Below, one piece after another: positions 18,028 to 33,110 of a stretch of DNA of 45,609 nucleotides (its first letter is position 1; each line of letters opens with the position of its first letter). Source of the DNA: a phage; NCBI GenBank assembly GCA_030873995.1, contig GCA_030873995.1_4701.1. One strand, 5' to 3'. A model generated the notes under the pieces. The model made no database searches. It worked only from the letters and a program-made list of their open reading frames with translations, and was not told the DNA's origin. A program made the position numbers and the translations under genes.

Positions 18028-18459
18028 ATGTACTCAGAAGTTGAAAGAGCAGGATACATCATAAGAGAAGATGGTGTTATCTTGAGCAAGAAGGGACAAC
18101 CGATGGTTGGTGCTATTCGTGAAAGAGGATACCGCACAGTAACATTAAGGATAGATAATAAATCCAAGACTTATAAAGTACATAGGTTGACTGCATGGAA
18201 GCATGTGCCGAACCCTCATAACTATAAGGTTGTTAACCATAAAGACCGCAACCCATCTAATTGCCATAAAGATAACCTAGAGTGGTGCACTCAACAGGAA
18301 AACACTATACATGCACACTATGGTTGTCTTGACATACAAGATAAAATAGATGAAGCCAAAGCATTAAGAAGCCAAGGCTGGTCTTATCCTAAAATCGGTA
18401 AATACTTTGGGTTAGACCATAAGACTGTTTGGTATTGGATTAATGGGAGAAGAACTTGA
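18028..18459 (+). CDS. HNH homing endonuclease
   Basis: 143 aa; motif HKDRNPSNCHKDNLEWCTQQEN; inserted between holin and terminase small subunit. Confidence 0.75.
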   Translation: MYSEVERAGYIIREDGVILSKKGQPMVGAIRERGYRTVTLRIDNKSKTYKVHRLTAWKHVPNPHNYKVVNHKDRNPSNCHKDNLEWCTQQENTIHAHYGCLDIQDKIDEAKALRSQGWSYPKIGKYFGLDHKTVWYWINGRRT

Positions 18460-18755
18460 GCGTACATAACAAACATGCAGCTACAGAAGACGAGGTTGGC
18501 ATTCTGCATGGTGCTATTACCAAAATCTTCAATAAGAAAGCACAGGCAATACTGGACACTATAGAAGAAGACCCTGATGCAGCACTACATTTAGTCTCTG
18601 GTAAAGACATTGGTGCTATGTGTAAGTGGGTACTGGATAACGGCATCACTGCTACACCTGCTGCACAGCAGGAAGAGTCCAAGTTATCTAAGCGCCTCAA
18701 GGCTATCCGAGAGGCATCCAGTGGTAAGATAATTCAATTCACTAAGGAGGATTGA
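18456..18755 (+). CDS. terminase small subunit (gp18-like), start codon uncertain (TTG)
   Basis: 99 aa ORF immediately upstream of and overlapping the terminase large subunit. Confidence 0.5.
   Translation: MSVHNKHAATEDEVGILHGAITKIFNKKAQAILDTIEEDPDAALHLVSGKDIGAMCKWVLDNGITATPAAQQEESKLSKRLKAIREASSGKIIQFTKED
18547..18569 (+). promoter_or_regulatory. phage-RNAP promoter inside the terminase small subunit gene
   Basis: CAATACTGGACACTATAGAAGAAG; matches consensus from -14 to +6, diverges at -17 to -15. Confidence 0.55.
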
Positions 18756-20653
18756 TGGCTAAGGCAAGAGAATCACAAGCGGAGGCTCTTGCCAGATGGG
18801 AGATGCTACAGGAGTTACAGCAGACCTTTCCTTACACAGCGGAAGGTTTGCTTCTCTTTGCAGACACAGTTATTCATAACTTGATTGCAGGCAACCCTCA
18901 TCTGATTCGTATGCAGGCTGATATCTTGAAGTTCCTATTCTACGGACACAAGTACCGCCTCATCGAAGCGCCTCGTGGTATCGCTAAGACAACACTATCA
19001 GCAATCTATACGGTATTCCGTATTATTCATGAACCGCATAAGCGTATCATGGTTGTGTCCCAAAACGCCAAGCGAGCAGAGGAAATCGCAGGTTGGGTAG
19101 TTAAAATCTTCCGTGGCTTAGACTTTCTTGAGTTTATGCTGCCGGATATCTACGCTGGGGACCGTGCATCCGTTAAGGCGTTTGAGATTCATTACACCCT
19201 ACGTGGTAGTGATAAGTCTCCTTCTGTATCCTGTTACTCAATCGAAGCAGGTATGCAGGGTGCTCGTGCTGATATTATTCTAGCGGATGACGTAGAGTCG
19301 ATGCAGAATGCTCGTACGGCAGCGGGCCGTGCCTTGCTTGAGGAACTGACTAAGGAGTTTGAATCTATCAACCAGTTTGGGGATATCATTTACCTTGGTA
19401 CACCTCAGAACGTAAACTCTATCTACAACAACCTACCTGCTCGTGGTTACTCTGTTCGTATCTGGACTGCGCGTTACCCTTCAGTAGAGCAAGAGCAATG
19501 TTATGGCGACTTCCTTGCACCTATGATTGTTCAAGATATGAAGGACAACCCAGCACTTCGCTCAGGGTACGGGTTGGATGGTAATAGTGGTGCACCTTGT
19601 GCCCCTGAAATGTATGATGATGAAGTCCTGATTGAGAAGGAAATCTCTCAGGGTGCTGCTAAGTTCCAGCTTCAGTTCATGCTTAACACTCGCATGATGG
19701 ATGCTGACAGATACCCATTACGCCTGAACAATCTAATCTTCACCTCGTTTGGTACAGAGGAAGTCCCTGTGATGCCTACGTGGAGTAATGATTCCATAAA
19801 CATCATTGGTGATGCACCTAAGTATGGTAACAAGCCTACGGATTTCATGTACAGACCTGTAGCTCGCCCATACGAATGGGGTGCTGTCTCCCGCAAGATT
19901 ATGTATATTGACCCTGCGGGTGGTGGTAAGAACGGAGATGAGACGGGTGTAGCCATCATATTCCTGCACGGCACATTCATTTATGTGTATCAGTGCTTTG
20001 GTGTACCTGGCGGATACCGAGAGTCGTCCCTGAATCGCATTGTGCAGGCCGCAAAGCAGGCGGGTGTTAAAGAGGTATTCATTGAGAAGAACTTTGGTCA
20101 TGGAGCGTTTGAGGCGGTAATTAAGCCGTACTTTGAACGAGAGTGGCCTGTAACTCTGGAAGAGGATTACGCCACCGGACAGAAAGAGTTGCGTATCATT
20201 GAGACGCTGGAGCCGCTCATGGCAGCCCATAGGCTTATCTTCAATGCAGAGATGGTGAAGTCAGACTTTGAGTCGGTACAGCACTATCCGCTTGAACTAC
20301 GCATGTCCTACAGTCTTTTCAATCAAATGTCGAACATAACGATTGAGAAGAACAGCCTCCGGCACGATGACCGCCTAGACGCCCTGTATGGCGCTATACG
20401 GCAATTAACTTCTCAGATAGACTATGACGAGGTTACACGGATTAATCGCCTCAGAGCGCAGGAGATGCGCGATTACATCCATGCTATGAATACACCTCAT
20501 CTACGCAGGGCAATGCTATATGGAGATTACGGTACTGAGCGAAGAGTGACCAACACTTCCGTAGCGATGCAGCAGCGAGTTTACGGGCAGAACTGCCGAA
20601 ATAAATCGGCAAGCAGAAATACACTTTCTGCAAGGATTTCAAGGACTTATTAA
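18755..20653 (+). CDS. terminase large subunit
   Basis: 632 aa, T7 gp19-like; AAGGAGG RBS; start overlaps upstream stop. Confidence 0.9.
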   Translation: MAKARESQAEALARWEMLQELQQTFPYTAEGLLLFADTVIHNLIAGNPHLIRMQADILKFLFYGHKYRLIEAPRGIAKTTLSAIYTVFRIIHEPHKRIMVVSQNAKRAEEIAGWVVKIFRGLDFLEFMLPDIYAGDRASVKAFEIHYTLRGSDKSPSVSCYSIEAGMQGARADIILADDVESMQNARTAAGRALLEELTKEFESINQFGDIIYLGTPQNVNSIYNNLPARGYSVRIWTARYPSVEQEQCYGDFLAPMIVQDMKDNPALRSGYGLDGNSGAPCAPEMYDDEVLIEKEISQGAAKFQLQFMLNTRMMDADRYPLRLNNLIFTSFGTEEVPVMPTWSNDSINIIGDAPKYGNKPTDFMYRPVARPYEWGAVSRKIMYIDPAGGGKNGDETGVAIIFLHGTFIYVYQCFGVPGGYRESSLNRIVQAAKQAGVKEVFIEKNFGHGAFEAVIKPYFEREWPVTLEEDYATGQKELRIIETLEPLMAAHRLIFNAEMVKSDFESVQHYPLELRMSYSLFNQMSNITIEKNSLRHDDRLDALYGAIRQLTSQIDYDEVTRINRLRAQEMRDYIHAMNTPHLRRAMLYGDYGTERRVTNTSVAMQQRVYGQNCRNKSASRNTLSARISRTY

Positions 20654-20674
20654 TTACTGGACACTATAGAAGGA
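20652..20674 (+). promoter_or_regulatory. phage-RNAP promoter after terminase
   Basis: AATTACTGGACACTATAGAAGGA; +1 G at 20669. Confidence 0.8.
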
Positions 20675-20805
20675 AGGCCCAGATAATAAGAGAAATAACA
20701 AGGATAATATAGTTAACCTAGGTTATATAGGTTACTATAGTATGGGTGTACTCCTGTACACCCTATTCCTACTTACTATTTACTTATATGTATAAGGAGT
20801 ATTAG

Positions 20806-21087
20806 ATGGCTAATGATTATAGTGATCAACCTTTAACTGGTCGATATGACCGTAAGCAGATTACACCGACCAGTGAGGCATTAATGCTCCCTGTTGTTAC
20901 AGAGGAGTCTATTACGAAGAAAGCCAATGTTATCAATGATGCAACCAAATCTGGTAAACAGAAAGCAGCAATGGTATGTCGTCCTGTAGGTGGCACTCTT
21001 GAGGTTGCCATTGCTACTGGTAGCAAAGAGGATGCAGATTGGTTGTCTGTTAAAATGGACAGCGTTGGTCTTATTACACCGGCTTAA
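20806..21087 (+). CDS. hypothetical protein, tandem paralog A
   Basis: 93 aa; shares SGKQK(A/G)AMV...(V/I)AIA(T/R)GS...D.W with 21105..21392; AAGGAG RBS. Confidence 0.5.
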   Translation: MANDYSDQPLTGRYDRKQITPTSEALMLPVVTEESITKKANVINDATKSGKQKAAMVCRPVGGTLEVAIATGSKEDADWLSVKMDSVGLITPA

Positions 21088-21104
21088 TAAAAGGAGAAGA
21101 TAAT

Positions 21105-21392
21105 ATGTCTAAGTATGGCGATGCAGGTACGACTACTGGTCAGGTTTTTCGTGTAAAAGCAGTACAAACTATTGCAACTGCAATTCCTATGCCTATCGTG
21201 GCAGAAGCTGACCTTAAAAAGAAAGATCATCCAATTAATATTGAACACCTATCTGGTAAGCAGAAAGGTGCTATGGTGGTTGTAGATAAAGGAGATAGCC
21301 TTTATATTGCTATTGCGCGTGGCTCTGCACCAACTGACAAGTGGGATGCAACTACTATGGAGGTGACACCTGTCACTCCAGAAGGGGATTAA
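21105..21392 (+). CDS. hypothetical protein, tandem paralog B
   Basis: 95 aa, paralog of 20806..21087; AAAGGAG RBS. Confidence 0.5.
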   Translation: MSKYGDAGTTTGQVFRVKAVQTIATAIPMPIVAEADLKKKDHPINIEHLSGKQKGAMVVVDKGDSLYIAIARGSAPTDKWDATTMEVTPVTPEGD

Positions 21393-21394
21393 TA

Positions 21395-21739
21395 ATGCTT
21401 AACAAATACTTCAAGCGTAAAGAGTTCGCTTGCCGTTGTGGGTGCGGTACATCCACTGTTGATGCTGAATTACTACAGGTAGTCACAGATGTGCGTGAGC
21501 ACTTTGGTTCTCCTGTAGTTATCACTTCGGGGCATCGCTGTGCTAAGCACAATGCTAATGTAGGAGGAGCTAAGAACTCCATGCATCTTACTGGTAAGGC
21601 TGCTGACATTAAGGTACGAGGCATCTTACCTTCTGATGTACATAAGTATCTTACTGATAAGTACCAAGGCAAGTATGGTATTGGTAAGTATACCTCCTTT
21701 ACTCATATTGATGTACGTAACGGGTGTGCACGATGGTAG
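21395..21739 (+). CDS. endolysin, peptidase M15 family
   Basis: 114 aa; zinc-peptidase signature SGHRCAKHN...SMHLTGKAADI; start trimmed from ORF 21341 to the RBS-supported ATG. Confidence 0.8.
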   Translation: MLNKYFKRKEFACRCGCGTSTVDAELLQVVTDVREHFGSPVVITSGHRCAKHNANVGGAKNSMHLTGKAADIKVRGILPSDVHKYLTDKYQGKYGIGKYTSFTHIDVRNGCARW

Positions 21740-21847
21740 GTTGTGTTGCATGGTGTGAACGCATGGTTGCTAAGGCTTCAGAGGAAGGCAACTATGAAGA
21801 TTGGCAGAACTACTCAACTTTATTAGCTCAATGGAAAGGGAGATGCA

Positions 21848-21997
21848 ATGAAAAAGCTGTTCAAATCTAAGAAGGTTGTAGGTGCACTAGTTGCATTGGC
21901 AATTGCTCTTGTTTCTGTAGGTCTTGGTGTAGACCTTGGCTCTGGCACGGAATCCTCTGTGACAGACGTGGTCTGCCAAGTGATCACCTGTGAATAA
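21848..21997 (+). CDS. small membrane protein (49 aa), lysis-associated candidate
   Basis: Not in the 60-aa track; N-terminal TM helix; AAAGGGAG RBS; lies between endolysin and spanin candidates. Confidence 0.45.
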   Translation: MKKLFKSKKVVGALVALAIALVSVGLGVDLGSGTESSVTDVVCQVITCE

Positions 21998-22211
21998 GTT
22001 TCTAGAAGTGCTGGCAGGTCTTATTGGCCTGCTTGTCTCTGCTAAGAAGAAACAAGAAGAGAAGGAGGCACAAAGTGAAGCGAATCATGTTAGTGACAAT
22101 CCTGCTGATTGGTTCGCTGACCACTTCCGGGTGTCAGCAGGCGTTACCAGAGAAAGCAATGGTGAAACCTCTGAGGCCGACGCTGACGGAAGTTTACGAG
22201 GTAGACGATAA
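21990..22211 (+). CDS. i-spanin candidate (GTG start)
   Basis: 73 aa, N-terminal TM followed by charged region; overlaps the o-spanin gene; weak start signal. Confidence 0.35.
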   Translation: MNKFLEVLAGLIGLLVSAKKKQEEKEAQSEANHVSDNPADWFADHFRVSAGVTRESNGETSEADADGSLRGRR

Positions 22212-22284
22212 GGTCTGCTTTAGTAAGCCTGACGCTACAAAATTAGGTTTGTATATTCTTTCGCTAGAACGCGGATATAATTAA
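22075..22284 (+). CDS. o-spanin lipoprotein
   Basis: Lipoprotein signal VKRIMLVTILLIGSLTTSGC with lipobox Cys; GGAGG 7 nt upstream of GTG 22075 (alternative ATG 22087). Confidence 0.6.
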   Translation: MKRIMLVTILLIGSLTTSGCQQALPEKAMVKPLRPTLTEVYEVDDKVCFSKPDATKLGLYILSLERGYN

Positions 22285-22313
22285 TACATAGCTTTATGTA
22301 TCAGTGTCTTACG

Positions 22314-22336
22314 ATTTACTGGACACTATAGAAGAG
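22314..22336 (+). promoter_or_regulatory. phage-RNAP promoter for the tailspike genes
   Basis: ATTTACTGGACACTATAGAAGAG exact consensus; +1 G at 22331. Confidence 0.85.
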
Positions 22337-22415
22337 GTAAGATAGCGCCGTTCTTTTGAGCGGCCTATTACTAGCCAATCTTCATAGGGAGGGTTGGAAA
22401 GTAATAGGAGATAGC

Positions 22416-24314
22416 ATGGCTAAATTAACCAAACCTAATACTGAAGGAATCTTGCATAAAGGACAATCTTTGTATGAGTACCTTGATGCGAGAGTTTTAA
22501 CATCAAAGCCGTTTGGTGCTGTAGGTGACGCCACTACTGATGATACGGAGGTTATAGCTGCTTCATTAAACTCTCAGAAAGCTGTCACAATCTCAGACGG
22601 TGTATTCTCTAGCTCTGGTATTAATAGTAATTACTGTAACTTAGACGGTAGAGGTAGTGGGGTGCTAAGTCACCGTTCCAGTGCAGGTAACTACTTAGTA
22701 TTTAACAATCCACGTACAGGTCGCTTAAGTAATATTACGGTAGAAAGTAATAAGGCGACTGATACAACTCAGGGACAGCAGGTATCTCTTGCTGGTGGAA
22801 GTGATGTTACTGTAAGTGACGTTAACTTCTCAAACGTTAAAGGTACTGGTTTCAGTTTAATCGCATACCCTAATGATGCGCCACCTGATGGACTTATGAT
22901 TAAAGGCATTCGAGGTAGCTATTCAGGCTATGCTACTAATAAGGCAGCCGGATGCGTACTTGCTGACTCCTCAGTTAACTCCCTCATAGATAACGTCATT
23001 GCTAAGAGCTACCCTCAGTTCGGAGCAGTAGAGTTGAAAGGTACAGCCAGTTACAACATAGTCAGTAATGTTATAGGGGCAGATTGCCAGCATGTAACTT
23101 ACAACGGCACTGTAGGGCCAATAGCCCCTTCTAATAACCTTATCAAGGGGGTGGTGGCTAATAACCCTAAGTATGCAGCGGTTGTTGCAGGCAAAGGAAG
23201 TACGAACTTAATCTCAGACGTGCTCGTAGATTACTCAACTTCTGATGCTAGGCAGGCTCATGGTGTTACAGTAGAGGGTTCTGATAACGTCATAAATAAT
23301 GTGCTTATGTCAGGATGTGATGGTACTAACTCTTTAGGACAAGGGCAGACTGCTACAATTGCACGCTTTAGAGGTACAGCTAATAACAACTATGCGTCTG
23401 TATTTCCTAGCTACAGTGCTACAGGTGTTATTACTTTCGAATCCGGCTCTACCCGTAACTTCGTAGAGGTAAAGCACCCTGGCAGGAGAAACGACCTTCT
23501 CAGTTCTGCTAGTACTATTGACGGTGCAGCTACTATTGACGGCACTAGTAATAGTAACGTAGTGCACGCACCTGCCTTAGGGCAGTACATAGGTAGTATG
23601 TCAGGTAGGTTCGAATGGCGGATTAAGTCCATGTCACTCCCTTCAGGTGTTCTTACTTCTGCTGATAAGTACAGAATGCTTGGAGATGGTGCTGTGTCAT
23701 TAGCTGTAGGTGGTGGCACTTCTTCTCAAGTTCGCCTATTTACTTCTGATGGTACTTCTCGGACAGTGTCCCTCACCAACGGTAACGTGCGTCTTTCTAC
23801 CAGTAGCACAGGCTTTTTGCAGTTAGGTGCTGATGCAATGACCCCAGACAGTACTGGTACATACGCATTAGGTTCCGCCAGTCGAGCATGGTCTGGCGGT
23901 TTTACTCAAGCAGCATTCACTGTTACCTCAGATGCTCGGTGTAAAACAGAACCTCTTACTATCTCAGATGCCTTACTAGATGCTTGGTCTGAAGTTGACT
24001 TTGTGCAGTTTCAGTATTTGGATCGTGTTGAGGAGAAGGGTGCAGACTCAGCTAGATGGCACTTTGGCATCATCGCTCAGCGAGCTAAGGAGGCCTTCGA
24101 ACGTCACGGTATAGATGCACATCGCTATGGCTTCTTGTGCTTCGACAGTTGGGATGATGTATACGAGGAAGATGCCAATGGCTCTCGTAAACTGATTACA
24201 CCAGCAGGTTCCCGCTACGGTATTCGTTACGAGGAAGTACTGATATTAGAGGCTGCGTTGATGCGGAGGACTATTAAGCGTATGCAGGAAGCACTAGCTT
24301 CCCTGCCTAAGTAA
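22416..24314 (+). CDS. tailspike 1 with C-terminal intramolecular chaperone (peptidase S74-like) domain
   Basis: 632 aa; N-terminal FGAVGDATTDDT beta-helix signature; C-terminal SDARCK...WHFGIIAQ autoproteolytic motif; promoter 22314 upstream. Confidence 0.75.
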   Translation: MAKLTKPNTEGILHKGQSLYEYLDARVLTSKPFGAVGDATTDDTEVIAASLNSQKAVTISDGVFSSSGINSNYCNLDGRGSGVLSHRSSAGNYLVFNNPRTGRLSNITVESNKATDTTQGQQVSLAGGSDVTVSDVNFSNVKGTGFSLIAYPNDAPPDGLMIKGIRGSYSGYATNKAAGCVLADSSVNSLIDNVIAKSYPQFGAVELKGTASYNIVSNVIGADCQHVTYNGTVGPIAPSNNLIKGVVANNPKYAAVVAGKGSTNLISDVLVDYSTSDARQAHGVTVEGSDNVINNVLMSGCDGTNSLGQGQTATIARFRGTANNNYASVFPSYSATGVITFESGSTRNFVEVKHPGRRNDLLSSASTIDGAATIDGTSNSNVVHAPALGQYIGSMSGRFEWRIKSMSLPSGVLTSADKYRMLGDGAVSLAVGGGTSSQVRLFTSDGTSRTVSLTNGNVRLSTSSTGFLQLGADAMTPDSTGTYALGSASRAWSGGFTQAAFTVTSDARCKTEPLTISDALLDAWSEVDFVQFQYLDRVEEKGADSARWHFGIIAQRAKEAFERHGIDAHRYGFLCFDSWDDVYEEDANGSRKLITPAGSRYGIRYEEVLILEAALMRRTIKRMQEALASLPK

Positions 24315-24398
24315 GCAACAGGCAGTGCGTAAGCACTGCTTTCACGCAACTTTTCTTAAAGGTTATCATGGTGGTAGCCTTTCAGAAAAGGAGGTTAC

Positions 24399-26582
24399 AT
24401 GCTTCAAAGATTAGGGGCAATGTTTGTTCGGTACAAAAATAAAGTAGGTAATGCTATCGAGCGTACACTACAAAGTAAATTACAGGATGTAGTAAGTGTA
24501 AAGGATTATGGCGCTATTGGTGATGGAGTATATCGTTCACTTGGTGCTAAATTTACCACGTTAAGTATGGCACAAGTAGTATACCCGCATGCGGAAAGTT
24601 TAACTCAATCGCAAGATTGGGCGGCTATTCAGGCTGCACTTAATTCTCACTCAAAAGTGTACATTCCAGCAGGTAAGTACATGCTATCTGATACCATTGA
24701 GATGCGCGGCGGTCAAACTCTGCAAGGTGACGGTATTGATTCTTGGGTTGCAGGTTATGCTGGGTTTGTAAAAGATAATCAAGGCACTCACCTCATAATG
24801 GTGGGAGATGGAAATAAGAAGTATACATTAGATCATGTATCTAACTTCGATGTAGAAGGTGGTGTCATAGACAACCCAGCGAAGAGTGATGCTTATACTG
24901 CCACTGCACCTTCCCCTAATTACTCATTTACTAACTTCACTAACGCTAACGCCTCTGGTGCACAACGTGCTACATTGAAACCTTTCAGCGTAGCATTACG
25001 TTGCACAGGTCACGGTGGTGTTTATCTTCGTGACTTCCGTATTGTGCCTAATCACAGAGGGCAAGAAGGTTATAAGGATGAGTTGTCAACTGCATTAGGG
25101 GACGCATGGGATGTAGGTATTTGGCTGGAGAATACATCTGACTCAGTGTTATCTTCTGTGCAAGCAGTTGGTTACTGGCGTATTGCAGGTGTTATGAAGA
25201 CTTGTATTCCACAAGAGGGTTCCTTTGTTGGTGGAGAGCGTGATAGGATATACAATTGCACATTACAAGGTTATCGTGGTTTCTTAGCACGTTCGCATGA
25301 TACTTACCAAGTAGAAGAAGTATCAGGTAACACTGTATCGATTAAGTGGTCTGCATCTCACACTTTCGAACCTTCTGGTAAAGTTCGTATCCAAGGGAAA
25401 GACCGTAGTTATACTAGCCTGTCTGTATCTGGTGACAAATTAGTCTTCAATGGTATTGACGATGTATCAGGTATTAATACCAATAGCTATGTGAGAGTTT
25501 CAGGGTCTTCATTCGGAATGTCTGCTACTCAACTAAATAACACATACATCGCTGCATTAAACCATCATGCTCGCTTGCCAGCAACCTCTAATCTTTTAGA
25601 TAATAGGTTTTCTACTTCGGCAGCTTGCTATGAAGTTGCAGGTGAACCAATTCGTGCCATAAAATTATCTAACTGTACTGTCATTACTTGGGATGACATC
25701 TTAGGTATGACTGGTGGTATTCGGGATTTCCAGACGACAGATACTTACTTCGAGTCTCAGCCTTTCCGTACTTCTGTGCAAGGCTTGGCAAGCACCACAC
25801 AACCTGCTGGTTCTCGCATGATTGCACTTCGTGGACGTCAAGGTTCTAAAACTACAGGATATCAAGCTATCGGTTGTACTTATGGGCCAGGTGTAGACTT
25901 AAGTCCTCGTTATGAAAGCGATGTATCTCGTTACACAACTTCAGGTGGTATGTTCAATCCAAGAGAAGATTTGAACACAACTAAGCAGTTACCAATGAGG
26001 CAAGACGCTACTGAGCTATCTTCTACTTCTGACTTATTCCTTACACATGCTGTAGGGCGGAAGGCCTATGTTGGCGCTACCTCTGGTGATGCAACGCTTC
26101 AATCTAGAACTGGATCATTGAATATCCAATCAGGACTTCGTGTACGGATTGGTGGCACTGATGGTAGTGGTTGGTATATTGCTGACAGTGCTAAGTTGAC
26201 ACCTACTGCTGACAATGCAAGGGCTTGTGGACAGCCTAATGGACGATGGACTGTTGTCTATGCTGTTAATGGTACAATCCAGACTTCTGATGGTAGATTC
26301 AAGGAAATCCTTGAGATTGAACAGGCAGAACTTGATGCTGGTCTTGAATTATCAGCAAACCTAATTAAGTATCGGTGGAATGGGGAAGATAAAATTCACT
26401 TTGGTTGCATAGCACAAGAAGTGATGTTAATACTGGAGAAACATGGCCTAGACCCATTACAATATGATATGGTTCAGTATGATGAGGAGGCAGACATCTT
26501 TGGGGTAAACTATGCTGAACTCAACAGCTTCTGTATTGCAGCATTATCGAGGAAGTTAAATGCCATTAATAAAATCAGTTAA
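24399..26582 (+). CDS. tailspike 2 with C-terminal intramolecular chaperone (peptidase S74-like) domain
   Basis: 727 aa; VKDYGAIGDG signature; C-terminal SDGRFKE...HFGCIAQE; AAGGAGG RBS. Confidence 0.75.
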   Translation: MLQRLGAMFVRYKNKVGNAIERTLQSKLQDVVSVKDYGAIGDGVYRSLGAKFTTLSMAQVVYPHAESLTQSQDWAAIQAALNSHSKVYIPAGKYMLSDTIEMRGGQTLQGDGIDSWVAGYAGFVKDNQGTHLIMVGDGNKKYTLDHVSNFDVEGGVIDNPAKSDAYTATAPSPNYSFTNFTNANASGAQRATLKPFSVALRCTGHGGVYLRDFRIVPNHRGQEGYKDELSTALGDAWDVGIWLENTSDSVLSSVQAVGYWRIAGVMKTCIPQEGSFVGGERDRIYNCTLQGYRGFLARSHDTYQVEEVSGNTVSIKWSASHTFEPSGKVRIQGKDRSYTSLSVSGDKLVFNGIDDVSGINTNSYVRVSGSSFGMSATQLNNTYIAALNHHARLPATSNLLDNRFSTSAACYEVAGEPIRAIKLSNCTVITWDDILGMTGGIRDFQTTDTYFESQPFRTSVQGLASTTQPAGSRMIALRGRQGSKTTGYQAIGCTYGPGVDLSPRYESDVSRYTTSGGMFNPREDLNTTKQLPMRQDATELSSTSDLFLTHAVGRKAYVGATSGDATLQSRTGSLNIQSGLRVRIGGTDGSGWYIADSAKLTPTADNARACGQPNGRWTVVYAVNGTIQTSDGRFKEILEIEQAELDAGLELSANLIKYRWNGEDKIHFGCIAQEVMLILEKHGLDPLQYDMVQYDEEADIFGVNYAELNSFCIAALSRKLNAINKIS

Positions 26583-26709
26583 GCAAAGTGCTGTACGCCA
26601 GAACACAGAAGAACTTATTCAATCAGGACGTAACCCTAAGCAGGCTTATGCCATTGCCAAGGATGTACAACGTCGTGCCTTGAAGAAACCTTCTGCATCT
26701 TCTGCGTAA
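26560..26709 (+). CDS. small basic ORF (49 aa) overlapping the tailspike 2 stop
   Basis: ATG 26560 with AGGAAG 4 nt upstream; not in the 60-aa track. Confidence 0.3.
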   Translation: MPLIKSVKQSAVRQNTEELIQSGRNPKQAYAIAKDVQRRALKKPSASSA

Positions 26710-26843
26710 GCAGGTTAATATCTTAGTGTACACAAGGGTAGACTTATGATAGCTCACAGCACACCTCTGAGTGCCGCTCTGGATTCTATGAATTGTTCCC
26801 TGACTATCTAGGTCTGCTCTTAGTGTATTCCAAAGGAGGTGAC

Positions 26844-26999
26844 ATGATTTGGATTCATACGTATGGTGTAGGGCCATTCAAGCAGAATGTACTCAGGAAG
26901 ATTCATGAGTCCGAGGAATCAGCCTTAGCCAGCCAGAAGGTACTTGGTGGAACTATCCAGTGCTACATGAAGAAGCCACAAGGCTTTGATTTAGGGTAA
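26844..26999 (+). CDS. hypothetical protein (51 aa) at the right end of the gene map
   Basis: ATG 26844 with AAAGGAGGTGA RBS; track ORF 26793 trimmed. Confidence 0.5.
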   Translation: MIWIHTYGVGPFKQNVLRKIHESEESALASQKVLGGTIQCYMKKPQGFDLG

Positions 27000-27686
27000 C
27001 CAAAGGTGGTCACAAAGTAACCAAAGTCAAAATTTTGATGTAGGCGTGTGTGAGGTGTCTCGCCCTCGCCCTCGCCGGGTTGTCCCCATAGGGTGGCCTG
27101 AGGGAATCCGTCTTCGACGGGCAGGGCTGATGTACTCCTTGCCTAGTACAAGGGAGGCGGAGTGAACGCCTGGGACGGCCTAGGGAATGGCTTAGTGGTG
27201 GACAAGGTGATTACCTTAGTGAAGCCTCTTAGTGCATTCCTTAGGCCATTCAGGGCGTTTATGAGGTATTGACAGGGTGGATGGGTGTGGGCTATCTGTT
27301 CGTTTCGCTACGCTTCACTCACTGCTCCTCACTTCGTTCGTCGCTGCGGTAGCCTGATGTGTACCTTAGGTTATTACTTGATGGATAGCTTAGGTTAGCC
27401 TTAGTGGATTACCTTAGTTAAAGCCTTAGTGCTTCACTTAGTATCAGCTTAGTAGTGTACCTTAGTCAGACTTAGTGTCTTCTCTTAGTGATTGCATAGC
27501 TAAAGCTATAAGATGCAAATAGGTCGCGGTCGGTAGACCGCTAAAGAAAGAGAATGGTAATAAGATGCAGTAGGAGGAACACCAGAAACCTAGCCAACCT
27601 AAGCTATCCTAGCTCTATATCTATTGCTTTTCCTTAGTCTAACACGTTAGACAACCTATCTTATTCTTAGTGATGGTAACTTAGTG

Positions 27687-27715
27687 TTGACAAGATAATC
27701 TTAGTGTAATACTAT
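27687..27715 (+). promoter_or_regulatory. sigma70-type early promoter candidate
   Basis: TTGACA, 17-bp spacer, TACTAT; first strong host-type promoter after the repeat-rich terminal region. Confidence 0.55.
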
Positions 27716-27787
27716 GCATCACGTAGGCGGTGCTGAGGCACCTAGTAGCCAGCTAGTAAGGCATACGAAGAGACTAGCGCTTACATT

Positions 27788-27800
27788 GCTCTTTAACAAT
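27788..27800 (+). promoter_or_regulatory. rrn-type boxA element (copy 1)
   Basis: GCTCTTTAACAAT identical to the rrn boxA core; about 65 nt after the predicted start of promoter 27687. Confidence 0.6.
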
Positions 27801-27858
27801 TTGCTTAGTGTAACCTATGTATGCCGTGGTTAATTACTTATTGAATGAGGTATTAACT

Positions 27859-28038
27859 ATGACATTAAACAACCGTGAACTATCCGTTCTCTTCACTCTG
27901 TTGTGCTACATGATTCGTAACAACGAATTGCTTACAGACGATGAGTTAGCCTTGTATCACCGCTTTCTTAACGAAGGTTGGACCGATACAGTTAATCAAT
28001 ACCGTAACATGATAGATGAGTTGAGGGAGGGTAAATAA
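27859..28038 (+). CDS. early hypothetical protein (59 aa)
   Basis: First ORF after a sigma70-like promoter and boxA; TGAGGT RBS. Confidence 0.5.
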   Translation: MTLNNRELSVLFTLLCYMIRNNELLTDDELALYHRFLNEGWTDTVNQYRNMIDELREGK

Positions 28039-28262
28039 TGTATCAACATGAGGTATTCTTTGAATCAGCTAGCGAAGCTATTCGCTTCCGTGATGATATG
28101 ATGCAAGCTGGTGTAGGCGTTGATGTGTATCACTATTTGATAGATTACGACACTGAATATCACCGAGTTACCTTAGTATCTGAGTATGACAACCAAGTCA
28201 TTACTGAGTATCTAGGCAGTGAAGATTACGATTACGATGAAGTAATCACGACAAATCTCTAA
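28038..28262 (+). CDS. early, highly acidic hypothetical protein (74 aa)
   Basis: TAATG coupling to the upstream ORF; GGAGGG RBS; 17 Asp/Glu against 3 Arg. Confidence 0.55.
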   Translation: MYQHEVFFESASEAIRFRDDMMQAGVGVDVYHYLIDYDTEYHRVTLVSEYDNQVITEYLGSEDYDYDEVITTNL

Positions 28263-28270
28263 ATTAACTG

Positions 28271-28299
28271 TTGACAGCCACGGCATACAAGGTTACATT
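28271..28299 (+). promoter_or_regulatory. sigma70-type early promoter candidate 2
   Basis: TTGACA, 17-bp spacer, TACATT. Confidence 0.4.
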
Positions 28300-28332
28300 A
28301 AGCATCAAGACGGCGACGTCTTTAAACATCCC

Positions 28333-28345
28333 GCTCTTTAACAAT
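28333..28345 (+). promoter_or_regulatory. rrn-type boxA element (copy 2)
   Basis: GCTCTTTAACAAT; preceded by hairpin AGACGGCGACGTCT (28308..28321). Confidence 0.6.
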
Positions 28346-28391
28346 ACGGTTTGTGTCTTGATAGGCTAACTAACTAACTAAGGTAATTATC

Positions 28392-28502
28392 ATGAAAGGT
28401 TTAATTTGTGTAGAACGTATGATCAATGGTAAACTTGAAATATTACCACTGGAAAACCAATCTAGCTTCAAAGAGTGGTATGGCTGTTTCTCACTGATTT
28501 AA
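28392..28502 (+). CDS. possible tiny ORF (36 aa) between the second and third boxA
   Basis: ATG with AAGGT upstream; no other support. Confidence 0.2.
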   Translation: MKGLICVERMINGKLEILPLENQSSFKEWYGCFSLI

Positions 28503-28544
28503 AGTAAAGGCTGGCACTAGTCAGCCTATCAAGGCGCAAACCAA

Positions 28545-28557
28545 GCTCTTTAACAAT
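28545..28557 (+). promoter_or_regulatory. rrn-type boxA element (copy 3)
   Basis: GCTCTTTAACAAT; preceded by hairpin AGGCTG-8nt-CAGCCT (28509..28528); upstream of ocr. Confidence 0.6.
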
Positions 28558-28653
28558 TTAGATGGTAGCTTCTTAGTCTGGATAGGTTAAACCTAGGGTA
28601 TTCTTTTGAGTACCCTATAATGTAACCTAACTAACTAAATGAGGATTAATAAC

Positions 28654-29013
28654 ATGGCTATGTCTAATATGACTTACTCTCAGGTTTACAACAACGCTCA
28701 TGCTGCATTAGTTGAACGTATCTGGAATGATGCTATTGATTGTATTGATAACGCACATGATGCAATCCATGATGTGGCGGATAGTGCTGTACCAATCTAT
28801 TATGCTGACATCTTCTCCGTGATGGCGAGTGAAGGAATTGATCATTTCTTCGAAGACTCCGGCCTGATGCCAGACACTAAGGATGTAACGGTAGTATTGC
28901 AAGCCCGTATCTATGAGCAACTCACAATTGATCTATGGGAACGTGTTCAGTATATGATTGTTGAATACATCAACTCCGCCGAATATTTAGAAGAAGAAGA
29001 AGAGGAAGAATAA
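28654..29013 (+). CDS. ocr: Ocr (T7 gp0.3) DNA-mimic anti-restriction protein
   Basis: MAMSNMTY...[49 protein letters not shown] closely matches T7 Ocr as recalled; poly-Glu tail; GAGGA RBS. Confidence 0.9.
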
Positions 29014-29014
29014 G

Positions 29015-29128
29015 ATGGAAAAGCTATACAACTTTATCTTTTCAGACGGTGTAACCCTGAAGTGTTCCCTACGATTCGCACAAATTCGTGAGGAAGTACT
29101 AGGCACTACATACAAACTATTTAGCTGA
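29015..29128 (+). CDS. small ORF (37 aa) directly after ocr
   Basis: ATG 2 nt after the ocr stop; no homology recognised. Confidence 0.35.
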   Translation: MEKLYNFIFSDGVTLKCSLRFAQIREEVLGTTYKLFS

Positions 29129-30482: not shown

Positions 30483-33110
30483 ATGCAAGACCTACACGCT
30501 ATTCAACTTCAACTTGAAGAAGAAATGTTTAACGGAGGTATCCGTCGCTTTGAAGCGGACCAACAACGCCAGATTGCATCCGGTAATGAATCCGACACGG
30601 CATGGAATCGCCGCTTATTGTCTGAGTTAATCGCGCCAATGGCTGAAGGCATTCAGGCATACAAGGAAGAGTATGAAGGTAAAAGAGGCCGTGCACCGCG
30701 TGCATTAGCTTTCATTAACTGCGTAGAAAACGAAGTGGCAGCATATATCACGATGAAAATCGTTATGGATATGCTGAACACGGATGTAACCTTGCAGGCT
30801 ATAGCCATGAATGTAGCTGACCGCATTGAGGACCAAGTACGTTTTAGCAAGCTGGAAGGTCACGCCGCCAAATACTTTGAGAAAGTTAAGAAGTCACTTA
30901 AGGCAAGTAAGACTAAATCATATCGCCATGCGCACAACGTAGCGGTCGTGGCTGAGAAGTCAGTAGCTGACCGTGACGCTGATTTCTCTCGCTGGGAGGC
31001 GTGGCCTAAAGATACCTTGCTACAAATCGGTATGACCTTGCTAGAAATACTGGAAAATAGTGTATTCTTCAATGGTCAGCCTGTCTTTCTTCGCACCTTG
31101 CGCACTAATGGTGGCAAGCATGGCGTTTACTACTTACAGACTAGCGAACACGTGGGTGAATGGATAACTGCATTTAAAGAGCACGTAGCTCAGCTGAGTC
31201 CAGCCTATGCGCCTTGCGTTATTCCTCCTCGTCCGTGGGTTTCTCCGTTTAATGGTGGCTTCCATACCGAGAAAGTGGCGAGTCGTATTCGTCTGGTTAA
31301 AGGAAACCGCGAGCACGTCCGCAAGCTGACCAAAAAGCAAATGCCAGCGGTTTACAAGGCTGTTAACGCTTTGCAGGCGACTAAGTGGCAGGTTAATAAA
31401 GAGGTTTTGCAGGTAGTAGAGGACGTTATCCGTCTCGACCTTGGTTATGGTGTGCCTTCCTTTAAACCGCTCATCGACCGTGAGAACAAGCCAGCTAATC
31501 CAGTGCCGTTAGAGTTCCAGCACCTGCGAGGCCGTGAACTTAAAGAGATGCTAACGCCGGAACAATGGCAAGCCTTCATCAACTGGAAAGGCGAATGTAC
31601 CAAGCTGTATACCGCTGAAACTAAGCGCGGCAGCAAGTCGGCGGCAACCGTTCGTATGGTCGGGCAGGCCCGTAAATACAGCCAGTTTGACGCAATATAC
31701 TTCGTGTATGCACTGGATAGCCGTTCACGCGTTTATGCGCAATCTAGCACGCTCTCGCCGCAATCAAACGACTTAGGCAAGGCATTGCTCCGTTTTACCG
31801 AAGGGCAGCGTCTTGATAGCGCTGAGGCGCTTAAGTGGTTTTTGGTGAACGGGGCGAATAACTGGGGTTGGGATAAGAAAACTTTTGACGTGCGCACCTC
31901 TAACGTGCTGGATGGCGAATTTCAAGACATGTGCCGCGACATTGCAGCCGATCCGCTGACCTTCACTCAATGGGTAAATGCTGATTCCCCTTACGGCTTC
32001 CTTGCATGGTGCTTTGAATATGCGCGTTATCTGGATGCACTGGATGAAGGCACGCAAGACCAATTCATGACGCACCTACCCGTCCATCAAGACGGTAGTT
32101 GCTCTGGTATCCAGCACTATAGCGCGATGTTACGCGATGAAGTAGGTGCGAAAGCAGTAAACCTTAAGCCTTCTGACTTCCCTCAAGATATTTATGGCGC
32201 GGTTGCGCAGGTTGTTATCCAGAAGAATTACGCCTACATGAATGCAGACGATGCAGAGACTTTCACATCTGGAAGCGTCACACTTACAGGTGCAGAACTG
32301 CGTAGCATGGCTAGTGCGTGGGATATGATAGGAATAACTCGCGGATTGACCAAAAAGCCCGTAATGACACTACCTTATGGCAGCACACGTCTAACCTGCC
32401 GTGAATCAGTGATTGATTATATCGTTGATTTGGAAGAAAAAGAGGCCCAACGAGCTATTGCGGAAGGGCGTACCGCCAATCCTGTACACCCTTTTGATAA
32501 TGACCGTAAGGACAGCCTGACACCTAGCGCAGCTTATAACTATATGACAGCTTTAATCTGGCCTTCTATTTCGGAAGTGGTTAAAGCTCCTATAGTGGCA
32601 ATGAAAATGATTCGTCAGCTTGCCCGTTTCGCAGCTAAAAGGAATGAAGGCTTAGAGTATACCTTGCCTACTGGCTTCATCTTGCAACAAAAGATTATGG
32701 CTACTGATATGCTCCGCGTATCCACTTGCCTGATGGGAGAAATCAAGATGAGTCTACAGATTGAAACGGACGTAGTGGATGAAACGGCTATGATGGGCGC
32801 TGCTGCTCCTAACTTTGTGCATGGTCATGATGCCAGTCACCTTATCTTAACAGTCTGCGACCTTGTTGATAAAGGGATTACATCTATCGCAGTCATTCAT
32901 GATTCTTTCGGTACTCACGCAGGCCGTACAGCCGATCTTCGTGATAGCTTAAGGGCAGAAATGGTGAAGATGTATCAAGGCCGTAATGCCCTGCAAAGCC
33001 TGTTAGATGAGCATGAAGAACGCTGGTTAGTAGACACCGGAATCCAAGTGCCAGAGCAAGGAGAGTTTGACCTTAACGAAATCTTAGTATCTGACTATTG
33101 CTTCGCATAA
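30483..33110 (+). CDS. single-subunit DNA-dependent RNA polymerase (T7/SP6 type)
   Basis: 875 aa; [17 protein letters not shown] and HDSFGT catalytic motifs; C-terminus ends CFA. Confidence 0.95.

Follow-up and report, generated by a model that had tools for sequence, protein, structure and literature searches.

We analysed a 45,609-nucleotide stretch of phage DNA (GenBank assembly GCA_030873995.1, contig GCA_030873995.1_4701.1), hereafter the window, and focused on the region at 26709-27860 leading up to the first early gene, in which a GC-rich segment is followed by CTTAGT(G) repeats. The results indicated that this region is very probably a concatemer junction of the T7 type, so that the virion DNA would be linear, with an exact direct repeat of about 237 bp at both ends that the assembler collapsed to one copy. 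K1-5 gene 23 spans the join between the end and the start of the window (the last 100 and the first 144 bases) without a break and with 99.6% identity, indicating that the window covers the whole genome in circularly permuted form, the opening point being arbitrary; a sequence-only reading of this DNA had likewise called the assembly permuted. Assemblers set base 1 of such genomes arbitrarily (PMC5557969), which explains a permuted, collapsed assembly. The junction region showed 91-95% nucleotide identity to Vectrevirus (K1-5-like) records. On the basis of this identity and that of the end join, we assigned the phage to the genus Vectrevirus, subfamily Molineuxvirinae, family Autographiviridae.

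To locate the two edges of the repeat, we compared the junction with the records of related phages. The GC-rich segment, which the sequence-only reading had placed at about 27057..27100, was found at 27058-27093 as TCTCGCCCTCGCCCTCGCCGGGTTGTCCCCATAGGG, that is TCTCGCCCTCGCCCTCGCC...CCCCATAGGG with CCCCATAGGG from 27084. It occurs once in the whole window, and Tandem Repeats Finder (TRF) reported (CTCGCC)x3 within it at 27059-27076. The linear record of K1-5 carries an exact 234-bp repeat at both ends; aligned to the window, this repeat runs from 27060 to 27294, and 227 of the positions are identical. Comparing the two ends of the SP6 and T7 records likewise gave exact repeats, of 174 bp and 160 bp, respectively. 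Besides K1-5, at least 10 related records start or have an annotated repeat at the equivalent of 27056-27060, or end at that of 27293-27294. On the left side, EEc2, EEc4 and R4596 start at 27058, the annotated repeats of Raoultella P3a, Mt1B1_P10 and phD2B begin at 27059, and that of SP6 begins at 27056. On the right side, K1-5, AAPEc6, VEc3, R4596, KAW1A4500 and Mt1B1_P10 stop at 27294, and Sem2 stops at 27293. In an alignment of 11 phages, conservation peaked at both of these edges (27010-27089 and 27270-27309), and the repeat interior was variable and rich in indels. The block around the left edge is kept even in Klebsiella, Proteus and Lelliottia phages, and is presumed to be the recognition and cut site for left-end formation. 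The GC content of the repeat is 58%, versus 45% for the genome.

The ends of the relatives' records and the conservation peaks at the edges together place the collapsed repeat at 27058 (+/-2) to 27294, which predicts a virion DNA of about 45.85 kb. A direct terminal repeat present here in one collapsed copy had been proposed from the sequence, and the terminal repeats of the relatives support it, by comparison rather than by direct end mapping. The packaging cut site proposed along with it is also located here by this comparison, as two predicted cut sites (27058 +/-2 and 27294) and not as one. A single-stranded DNA fold of 27000-27110 was no more stable than its shuffles (z -0.8), and a hairpin-based cut site is unsupported.

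We then examined the right edge of the repeat, where the window carries a feature that the sequence-only reading did not mention. ATCTGTT, preceded by T, lies at 27294-27300 and is the sole plus-strand copy in the genome. ATCTGTT following A, C or T (HATCTGTT) is the class II pause and termination signal of T7 RNA polymerase. Its placement at the repeat edge is common to the window and to five reference phages: T7 (repeat 160 bp, ATCTGTT from 161), T3 (231 bp, from 232), K11 (180 bp, from 182, with 180-188 labelled 'concatemeric junction' in the record), SP6 (174 bp, from 174) and K1-5 (234 bp, from 234). Genome-wide, ATCTGTT occurs once on the plus (coding) strand and four times on the minus strand, with about four expected per strand. 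The single plus-strand copy would fit an avoidance of the pause signal within transcription units, but is not significant by itself. A perfect TTGACA was also observed inside the repeat at 27269, kept in Vectrevirus and SP6, with CTATCT 17 nt downstream overlapping the pause signal (27269-27298). As a promoter this pair was rejected, as its -10 element failed the consensus and the promoter scan did not flag the site. The T7 concatemer-junction signal can serve as an Escherichia coli promoter, according to a 2026 preprint.

The proteins that such a junction would need are encoded in the window: both terminase subunits are of the T7 type, and the RNA polymerase is a single-subunit phage enzyme (Table 1). 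We found 12 phage promoters (consensus ATTTACTGGACACTATAGAAG), all on the plus strand and reading towards the junction, the last late promoter being at 22314. Between 22314 and 29119, searches with the SP6 promoter and with the phage's own consensus gave no phage promoter, and no phiOL- or phiOR-like promoter was detected near the junction; GGAGGAACACCAGAA (27574-27588) bears a faint likeness to a promoter core and was judged too weak. In 20600-27400, terminator-like sites were no more frequent than in shuffled sequence, so that late transcripts should reach the pause signal.

The comparison establishes the sequence features, their conservation and their agreement with the ends of related linear records. 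These elements suggest the following course of events, in which cutting, pausing, repeat duplication and protein binding are what we infer for this phage. Replication would produce head-to-tail concatemers in which neighbouring genomes share one copy of the repeat. The phage RNA polymerase would run rightward from 22314, meeting no terminator, and would pause at TATCTGTT (27293-27300), which would mark the right edge of the repeat. The paused polymerase may help to recruit terminase, as in T7, whose polymerase, when paused at the junction, reportedly interacts with gp18/gp19 and thereby starts maturation and packaging (PMC3276506). The T7-type terminase would then nick both repeat edges, and extension synthesis would duplicate the repeat, as described for terminal repeats after nicking (PMC5557969). 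The packaged genome would thus end at 27294 and start at about 27058.

Several points weigh against this picture. The termini of this phage are predicted from those of its relatives. Among the records, the left edge varies by up to 4 nt (27056 in the SP6 type, 27058, 27059 and 27060), and database 'ends' may in many cases have been copied from K1-5 or SP6, so that the records may not be fully independent. For UAB_Phi78, whose ends were studied experimentally (PMC4837284), the annotated repeat is shifted leftward by 10-15 nt relative to the boundaries in SP6. At the right edge, NTNC80A and the Klebsiella and Proteus relatives carry ATCTGTC instead of ATCTGTT, a variant reportedly unrecognised by T7 polymerase. 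The putative binding of a protein to CTTAGT is a further weak point, as no binding protein is known. SP6-like phages are not known to have a homologue of the T7 lysozyme (gp3.5), so the pausing and recruitment step may differ in them. The ends of K1-5 and SP6 were reportedly mapped experimentally (Scholl et al., J Mol Biol, 2004; Dobbins et al., J Bacteriol, 2004), a statement that also rests on the structure of the records.

To characterise the short repeats, we counted CTTAGT on both strands. The region 26722-27804 contains 18 copies on the plus strand and none on the minus strand. The remaining 44.5 kb contains 12 and 28, respectively, from which 0.52 copies would be expected in 26722-27804 (Poisson P ~7e-22 for the enrichment and P ~8e-6 for the strand bias). 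With three copies of CTTAGG the total is 21, 13 of which are followed by G. Upstream of the GC-rich segment there are two CTTAGT, and downstream of it 16 CTTAGT and 3 CTTAGG. The 'about 19' repeats counted from the sequence were therefore exact in number, but they form three clusters and not one array. Single CTTAGT copies lie at 26722, 26819 and 27804, and at the position of the first two, to the left of the repeat, K1-5 and SP6 have three copies. TRF reported only degenerate units of 23-25 bp in the repeat region. A 17-nt inverted repeat (27383-27399 and 27593-27609, 16/17 complementary) was observed to bracket most of the main array together with the conserved block that follows it. A stop-codon role of the TAG in the heptamer, which occurs in all three frames, was rejected, as the region has 23-26 stops per frame regardless. 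In a full-text literature search, 'CTTAGT' matched primers only.

In the main array of eight phages, identity was 94% in motif columns versus 70% in spacer columns, and the difference indicates that the motif itself is under selection. In the Klebsiella and Proteus relatives, CTTAGTG is replaced by 10-12 copies of NATAGTG (mostly CATAGTG), nearly all on the plus strand and spaced by 11-13 or 22 bp, and one heptamer abuts the first early TTGACA, matching the arrangement in the window. By its position, we consider the main array to be the counterpart of the CCTAAAG short-repeat array of T7, which is said to carry the name SRL (of the pair SRL/SRR, reportedly from Dunn and Studier, 1983). We know of no function assigned to the short-repeat arrays of the T7 group. 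The heptamer thus differs by lineage: T7 has CCTAAAG, SP6, K1-5 and the phage studied here have CTTAGTG, and the relatives from Klebsiella and Proteus have CATAGTG. Its position, orientation and phase are kept across the lineages, as is the copy that adjoins the first early -35. Such a concerted change of motif with the layout kept points to sites for a lineage-specific protein.

Most likely, the CTTAGT(G) heptamers are a putative binding-site array for a phage-encoded protein that acts on the left end while the ends are processed, the DNA is packaged or the genome enters the cell. This protein might serve packaging recognition, handle the left end as it enters, control the early promoters or take part in replication. 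A more specific proposal, which we put forward tentatively as one possibility, is that array and protein co-evolved, the protein being, for example, the small-terminase ring or a protein for left-end entry. If true, this would assign a function to the short-repeat arrays of the T7 group.

The heptamers might instead have no part in packaging and be operator- or iteron-like sites of a phage or host regulator, serving early transcription (for example, the shut-off of host-type early promoters) or replication at the left end, as in a phiOL-like origin. Four copies surround the first early promoter, with one abutting its -35 element and one in its spacer, and the Klebsiella and Proteus relatives preserve this arrangement, with ATAGTG as the variant motif. 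Strong conservation and hairpins with compensatory changes, as might be seen in an origin, mark the adjoining block at 27490-27660, and T7 and T3 have the secondary-origin promoter phiOL at a comparable place. However, most of the copies (14 of 21) are found either within the terminal repeat or 200-500 bp upstream of the promoter, and two belong to the opposite end of the genome. The promoter searches found no phage-type promoter in 27000-29118, and for a regulator, too, no protein that binds the motif is known. We therefore regard this explanation as rather unlikely.

With respect to packaging itself, headful packaging or ends located elsewhere, with the GC-rich segment and the repeats as a mere intergenic regulatory region, would agree with a circular assembly whose termini are only deduced. 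This is very improbable, since the terminase is of the T7 and not of a headful type, the deposited genomes of close relatives are linear and have their exact repeats at just this place, the window itself starts and stops within a conserved gene, and the T7-type junction signature is complete. Cohesive (cos) ends made in the HK97 manner with the help of an HNH endonuclease would be suggested by the HNH open reading frame (ORF), which immediately precedes the TerS and TerL genes. This ORF is a sporadic insertion of about 440 bp that K1-5 and most relatives lack; the few relatives that have it (EC120, K1E, ACG-C91 and VEc3) carry it under the annotation of a homing endonuclease. This distribution, which is not that of a conserved partner, and a terminase that is T7-type and not HK97-type contradict HNH-assisted cos packaging and leave this mechanism hardly any probability; the ORF product is probably a homing endonuclease. 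That the cluster arose by chance, low complexity or assembly artefact is refuted, short as the motif is, by 18 copies versus 0.5 expected, all on one strand and at the same positions in independently sequenced phages.

Hairpin 1 of the conserved block at 27490..27660, at 27496-27509, is ATAGC-TAAA-GCTAT, and its counterpart in K1-5 and DIJ06P1 is ACATG-CAAG-CATGT, which amounts to three compensated pairs. The second hairpin is GCGGTC-GGTA-GACCGC at 27526-27541, and the near-palindrome GTCTAACACGTTAGAC lies at 27637-27652. An Rfam scan of 26400-28700 (E<=1) returned nothing relevant and no match for this block. In vB_EcoP_B (L017), about 80 bp of this block are locally duplicated at the equivalent of 27590-27632, and a run of 20 T stands on either side of the duplication. 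A search of the window for DnaA boxes found none in the junction. Five perfect DnaA boxes TGTGGATAA (reverse complement TTATCCACA), all in one orientation, were seen in the Klebsiella and Proteus relatives, where they sit in the presumed terminal repeat between CCCCATAGG and TATCTGTC (L009, 1391-1550; L010, 1392-1551; L011, 1172-1330).

We found an rrn-type boxA, GCTCTTTAACAA(T), in three copies (27788-27802, 28333-28345 and 28545-28557), the first two of which lie in leaders downstream of early host-type promoters (27687 and 28271). The boxA 11-mer is also present in the early leaders of T7, T3, K11, SP6 and K1-5. These matches to the rrnB boxA sequence (PMC2176067) suggest that early transcription may use host Nus-factor antitermination.

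The region had been described as a non-coding stretch of roughly 1.1 kb, and this did not hold, as it contains a conserved gene of 51 amino acids (aa). Only 26710-26843 and 27000-27858 are truly non-coding. A tblastn search found matches to this gene in 341 phage records from many hosts, including Campylobacter and Pseudomonas phages, mostly at less than 60% identity. At the same position K1-5 has an unrelated small gene, gene 49. The 51-aa gene deserves annotation. The features of the junction and of the machinery are collected in Table 1.

Table 1. Features of the proposed concatemer junction and of the packaging and transcription genes, with positions in the window
Feature	Position	Strand	Evidence or remark
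HNH endonuclease ORF	18028-18459		between the holin and small terminase genes
TerS, T7 gp18-type	18456-18755		PF11123 DNA_Packaging_2, E 3e-16; PHROG terminase family
TerL, T7-type	18752-20653		PF22530 Terminase-T7 RNaseH-like domain, E 2e-35; PHROG terminase family
Two CTTAGTG left of the terminal repeat	26722-26728, 26819-26825	+	would lie in the unique sequence at the right end of virion DNA
Conserved 51-aa gene, last before the genome end	26844..26999	+	Shine-Dalgarno sequence AAAGGAGG and ATG; phrog_3955, E 6e-25
Left-terminus block CACAAAGTAACCAAAGTCAAAATTTTGATGTAGGCGTGTG...TCTCGCCCTCGCCCTCGCC...CCCCATAGGG	27010..27093		most conserved block of the region; 82-96% column identity in 11 phages including Klebsiella and Proteus relatives
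Predicted terminal repeat, one collapsed copy	27058..27294		~237 bp (about 235-239); left edge 27056-27060; K1-5 alignment and relatives' record ends
Repeat cluster inside the terminal repeat, 3 CTTAGT + 1 CTTAGG	27191..27245	+	conserved in K1-5, CrRp3, PSK8 and DIJ06P1
Putative class II pause/termination signal TATCTGTT ('CJ' site)	27293..27300	+	right edge of the terminal repeat; signal for T7-type RNA polymerases
Pyrimidine-rich spacer (76%), variable in length	27301..27345	+	directly after the pause signal
Main short-repeat array, 10 copies of CTTAG(T/G)	27365..27489	+	start-to-start spacings 24, 11, 13, 12, 12, 11, 13, 10, 13; ~12-bp phase
Conserved block with two small hairpins and a near-palindrome	27490..27660	+	conservation above that of the flanking sequence (87-96% identity, Vectrevirus and SP6)
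Four CTTAGT around the first early promoter	27633..27705	+	one abuts the -35 hexamer, one in the promoter spacer
Putative first early host-type promoter, TTGACA-17-TACTAT	27687..27715	+	consensus match, 10/12
rrn-type boxA GCTCTTTAACAATTT in the early leader, then the last CTTAGTG copy	27788..27809	+	rrnB boxA sequence in PMC2176067
First early gene, 59 aa, homologue of K1-5 gene 1	27859..28038	+	phrog_9275, E 2e-40
Single-subunit phage RNA polymerase	30483-33110		PF00940, PF14700

For annotation, these results call for re-opening the genome at about 27058 and adding a repeat of about 237 bp at its right end, giving the virion DNA length predicted above. Existing knowledge is unchanged, as the terminal repeats of K1-5 and SP6 and the concatemer-junction signals of T7 were described before; the isolate is new, and the feature is an ordinary element that had already been described in SP6/K1-5-like phages.

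Among the known systems, K1-5 (AY370674) is the closest match, with the same order of elements from the last late genes to gene 1; its 18 CTTAG(T/G) copies match in position, and the early promoter is the same. A few substitutions separate the two immediately beyond the left end (GAGGTG in the window, CAGCTC in K1-5). In addition, the pyrimidine-rich spacer after the pause site is longer in the window, the phrog_3955 ORF stands where K1-5 has gene 49, and hairpin 1 differs in sequence with compensation. With SP6 (AY370673, 174-bp repeat) the window has in common the left-end block, the right-edge sequence TTGACA...GGGCTATCTGTT, a CTTAGT array in 12-bp phase and the block at 27490-27660. The SP6 repeat, in contrast, is shorter and largely different in its interior, with one CTTAGT inside, and its promoter region is rearranged.

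The likeness to the left ends of T7 and T3 noticed in the sequence-only reading proved real: the TCTC start, CCCCATAGGG about 26 nt in (about 25 nt in T7), ATCTGTT at the right edge (in T7 immediately at it) and then a phased short-repeat array are shared. In T7 the oriented heptamers also have a spacing of 12-13 bp, the CCTAAAG copies being mostly 13 bp apart and directly following the repeat. T7 further resembles the window in its host-type early promoters with a boxA leader and in its terminase and RNA polymerase types, and T3 and K11 are built likewise. T7 differs from the window in its heptamer (CCTAAAG versus CTTAGTG) and in having no overall nucleotide similarity to it, and in T7, T3 and K11 a phage promoter, phiOL, separates the array from the host promoters, whereas none is detectable in the window.

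The Molineuxvirinae phages of Klebsiella and Proteus (for example, vB_Kpn_K13PH07C1L, pKV-BS375-3.1 and PmP19) share the left-end cut-site block, the layout of the repeat edge and the phased, oriented heptamers, but have CATAGTG as the heptamer, TATCTGTC as the edge signal and five DnaA boxes in the presumed repeat. The wider interest of the junction is comparative: three lineages share one layout of phased, oriented heptamers with different heptamers, which makes the short-repeat arrays easier to test.

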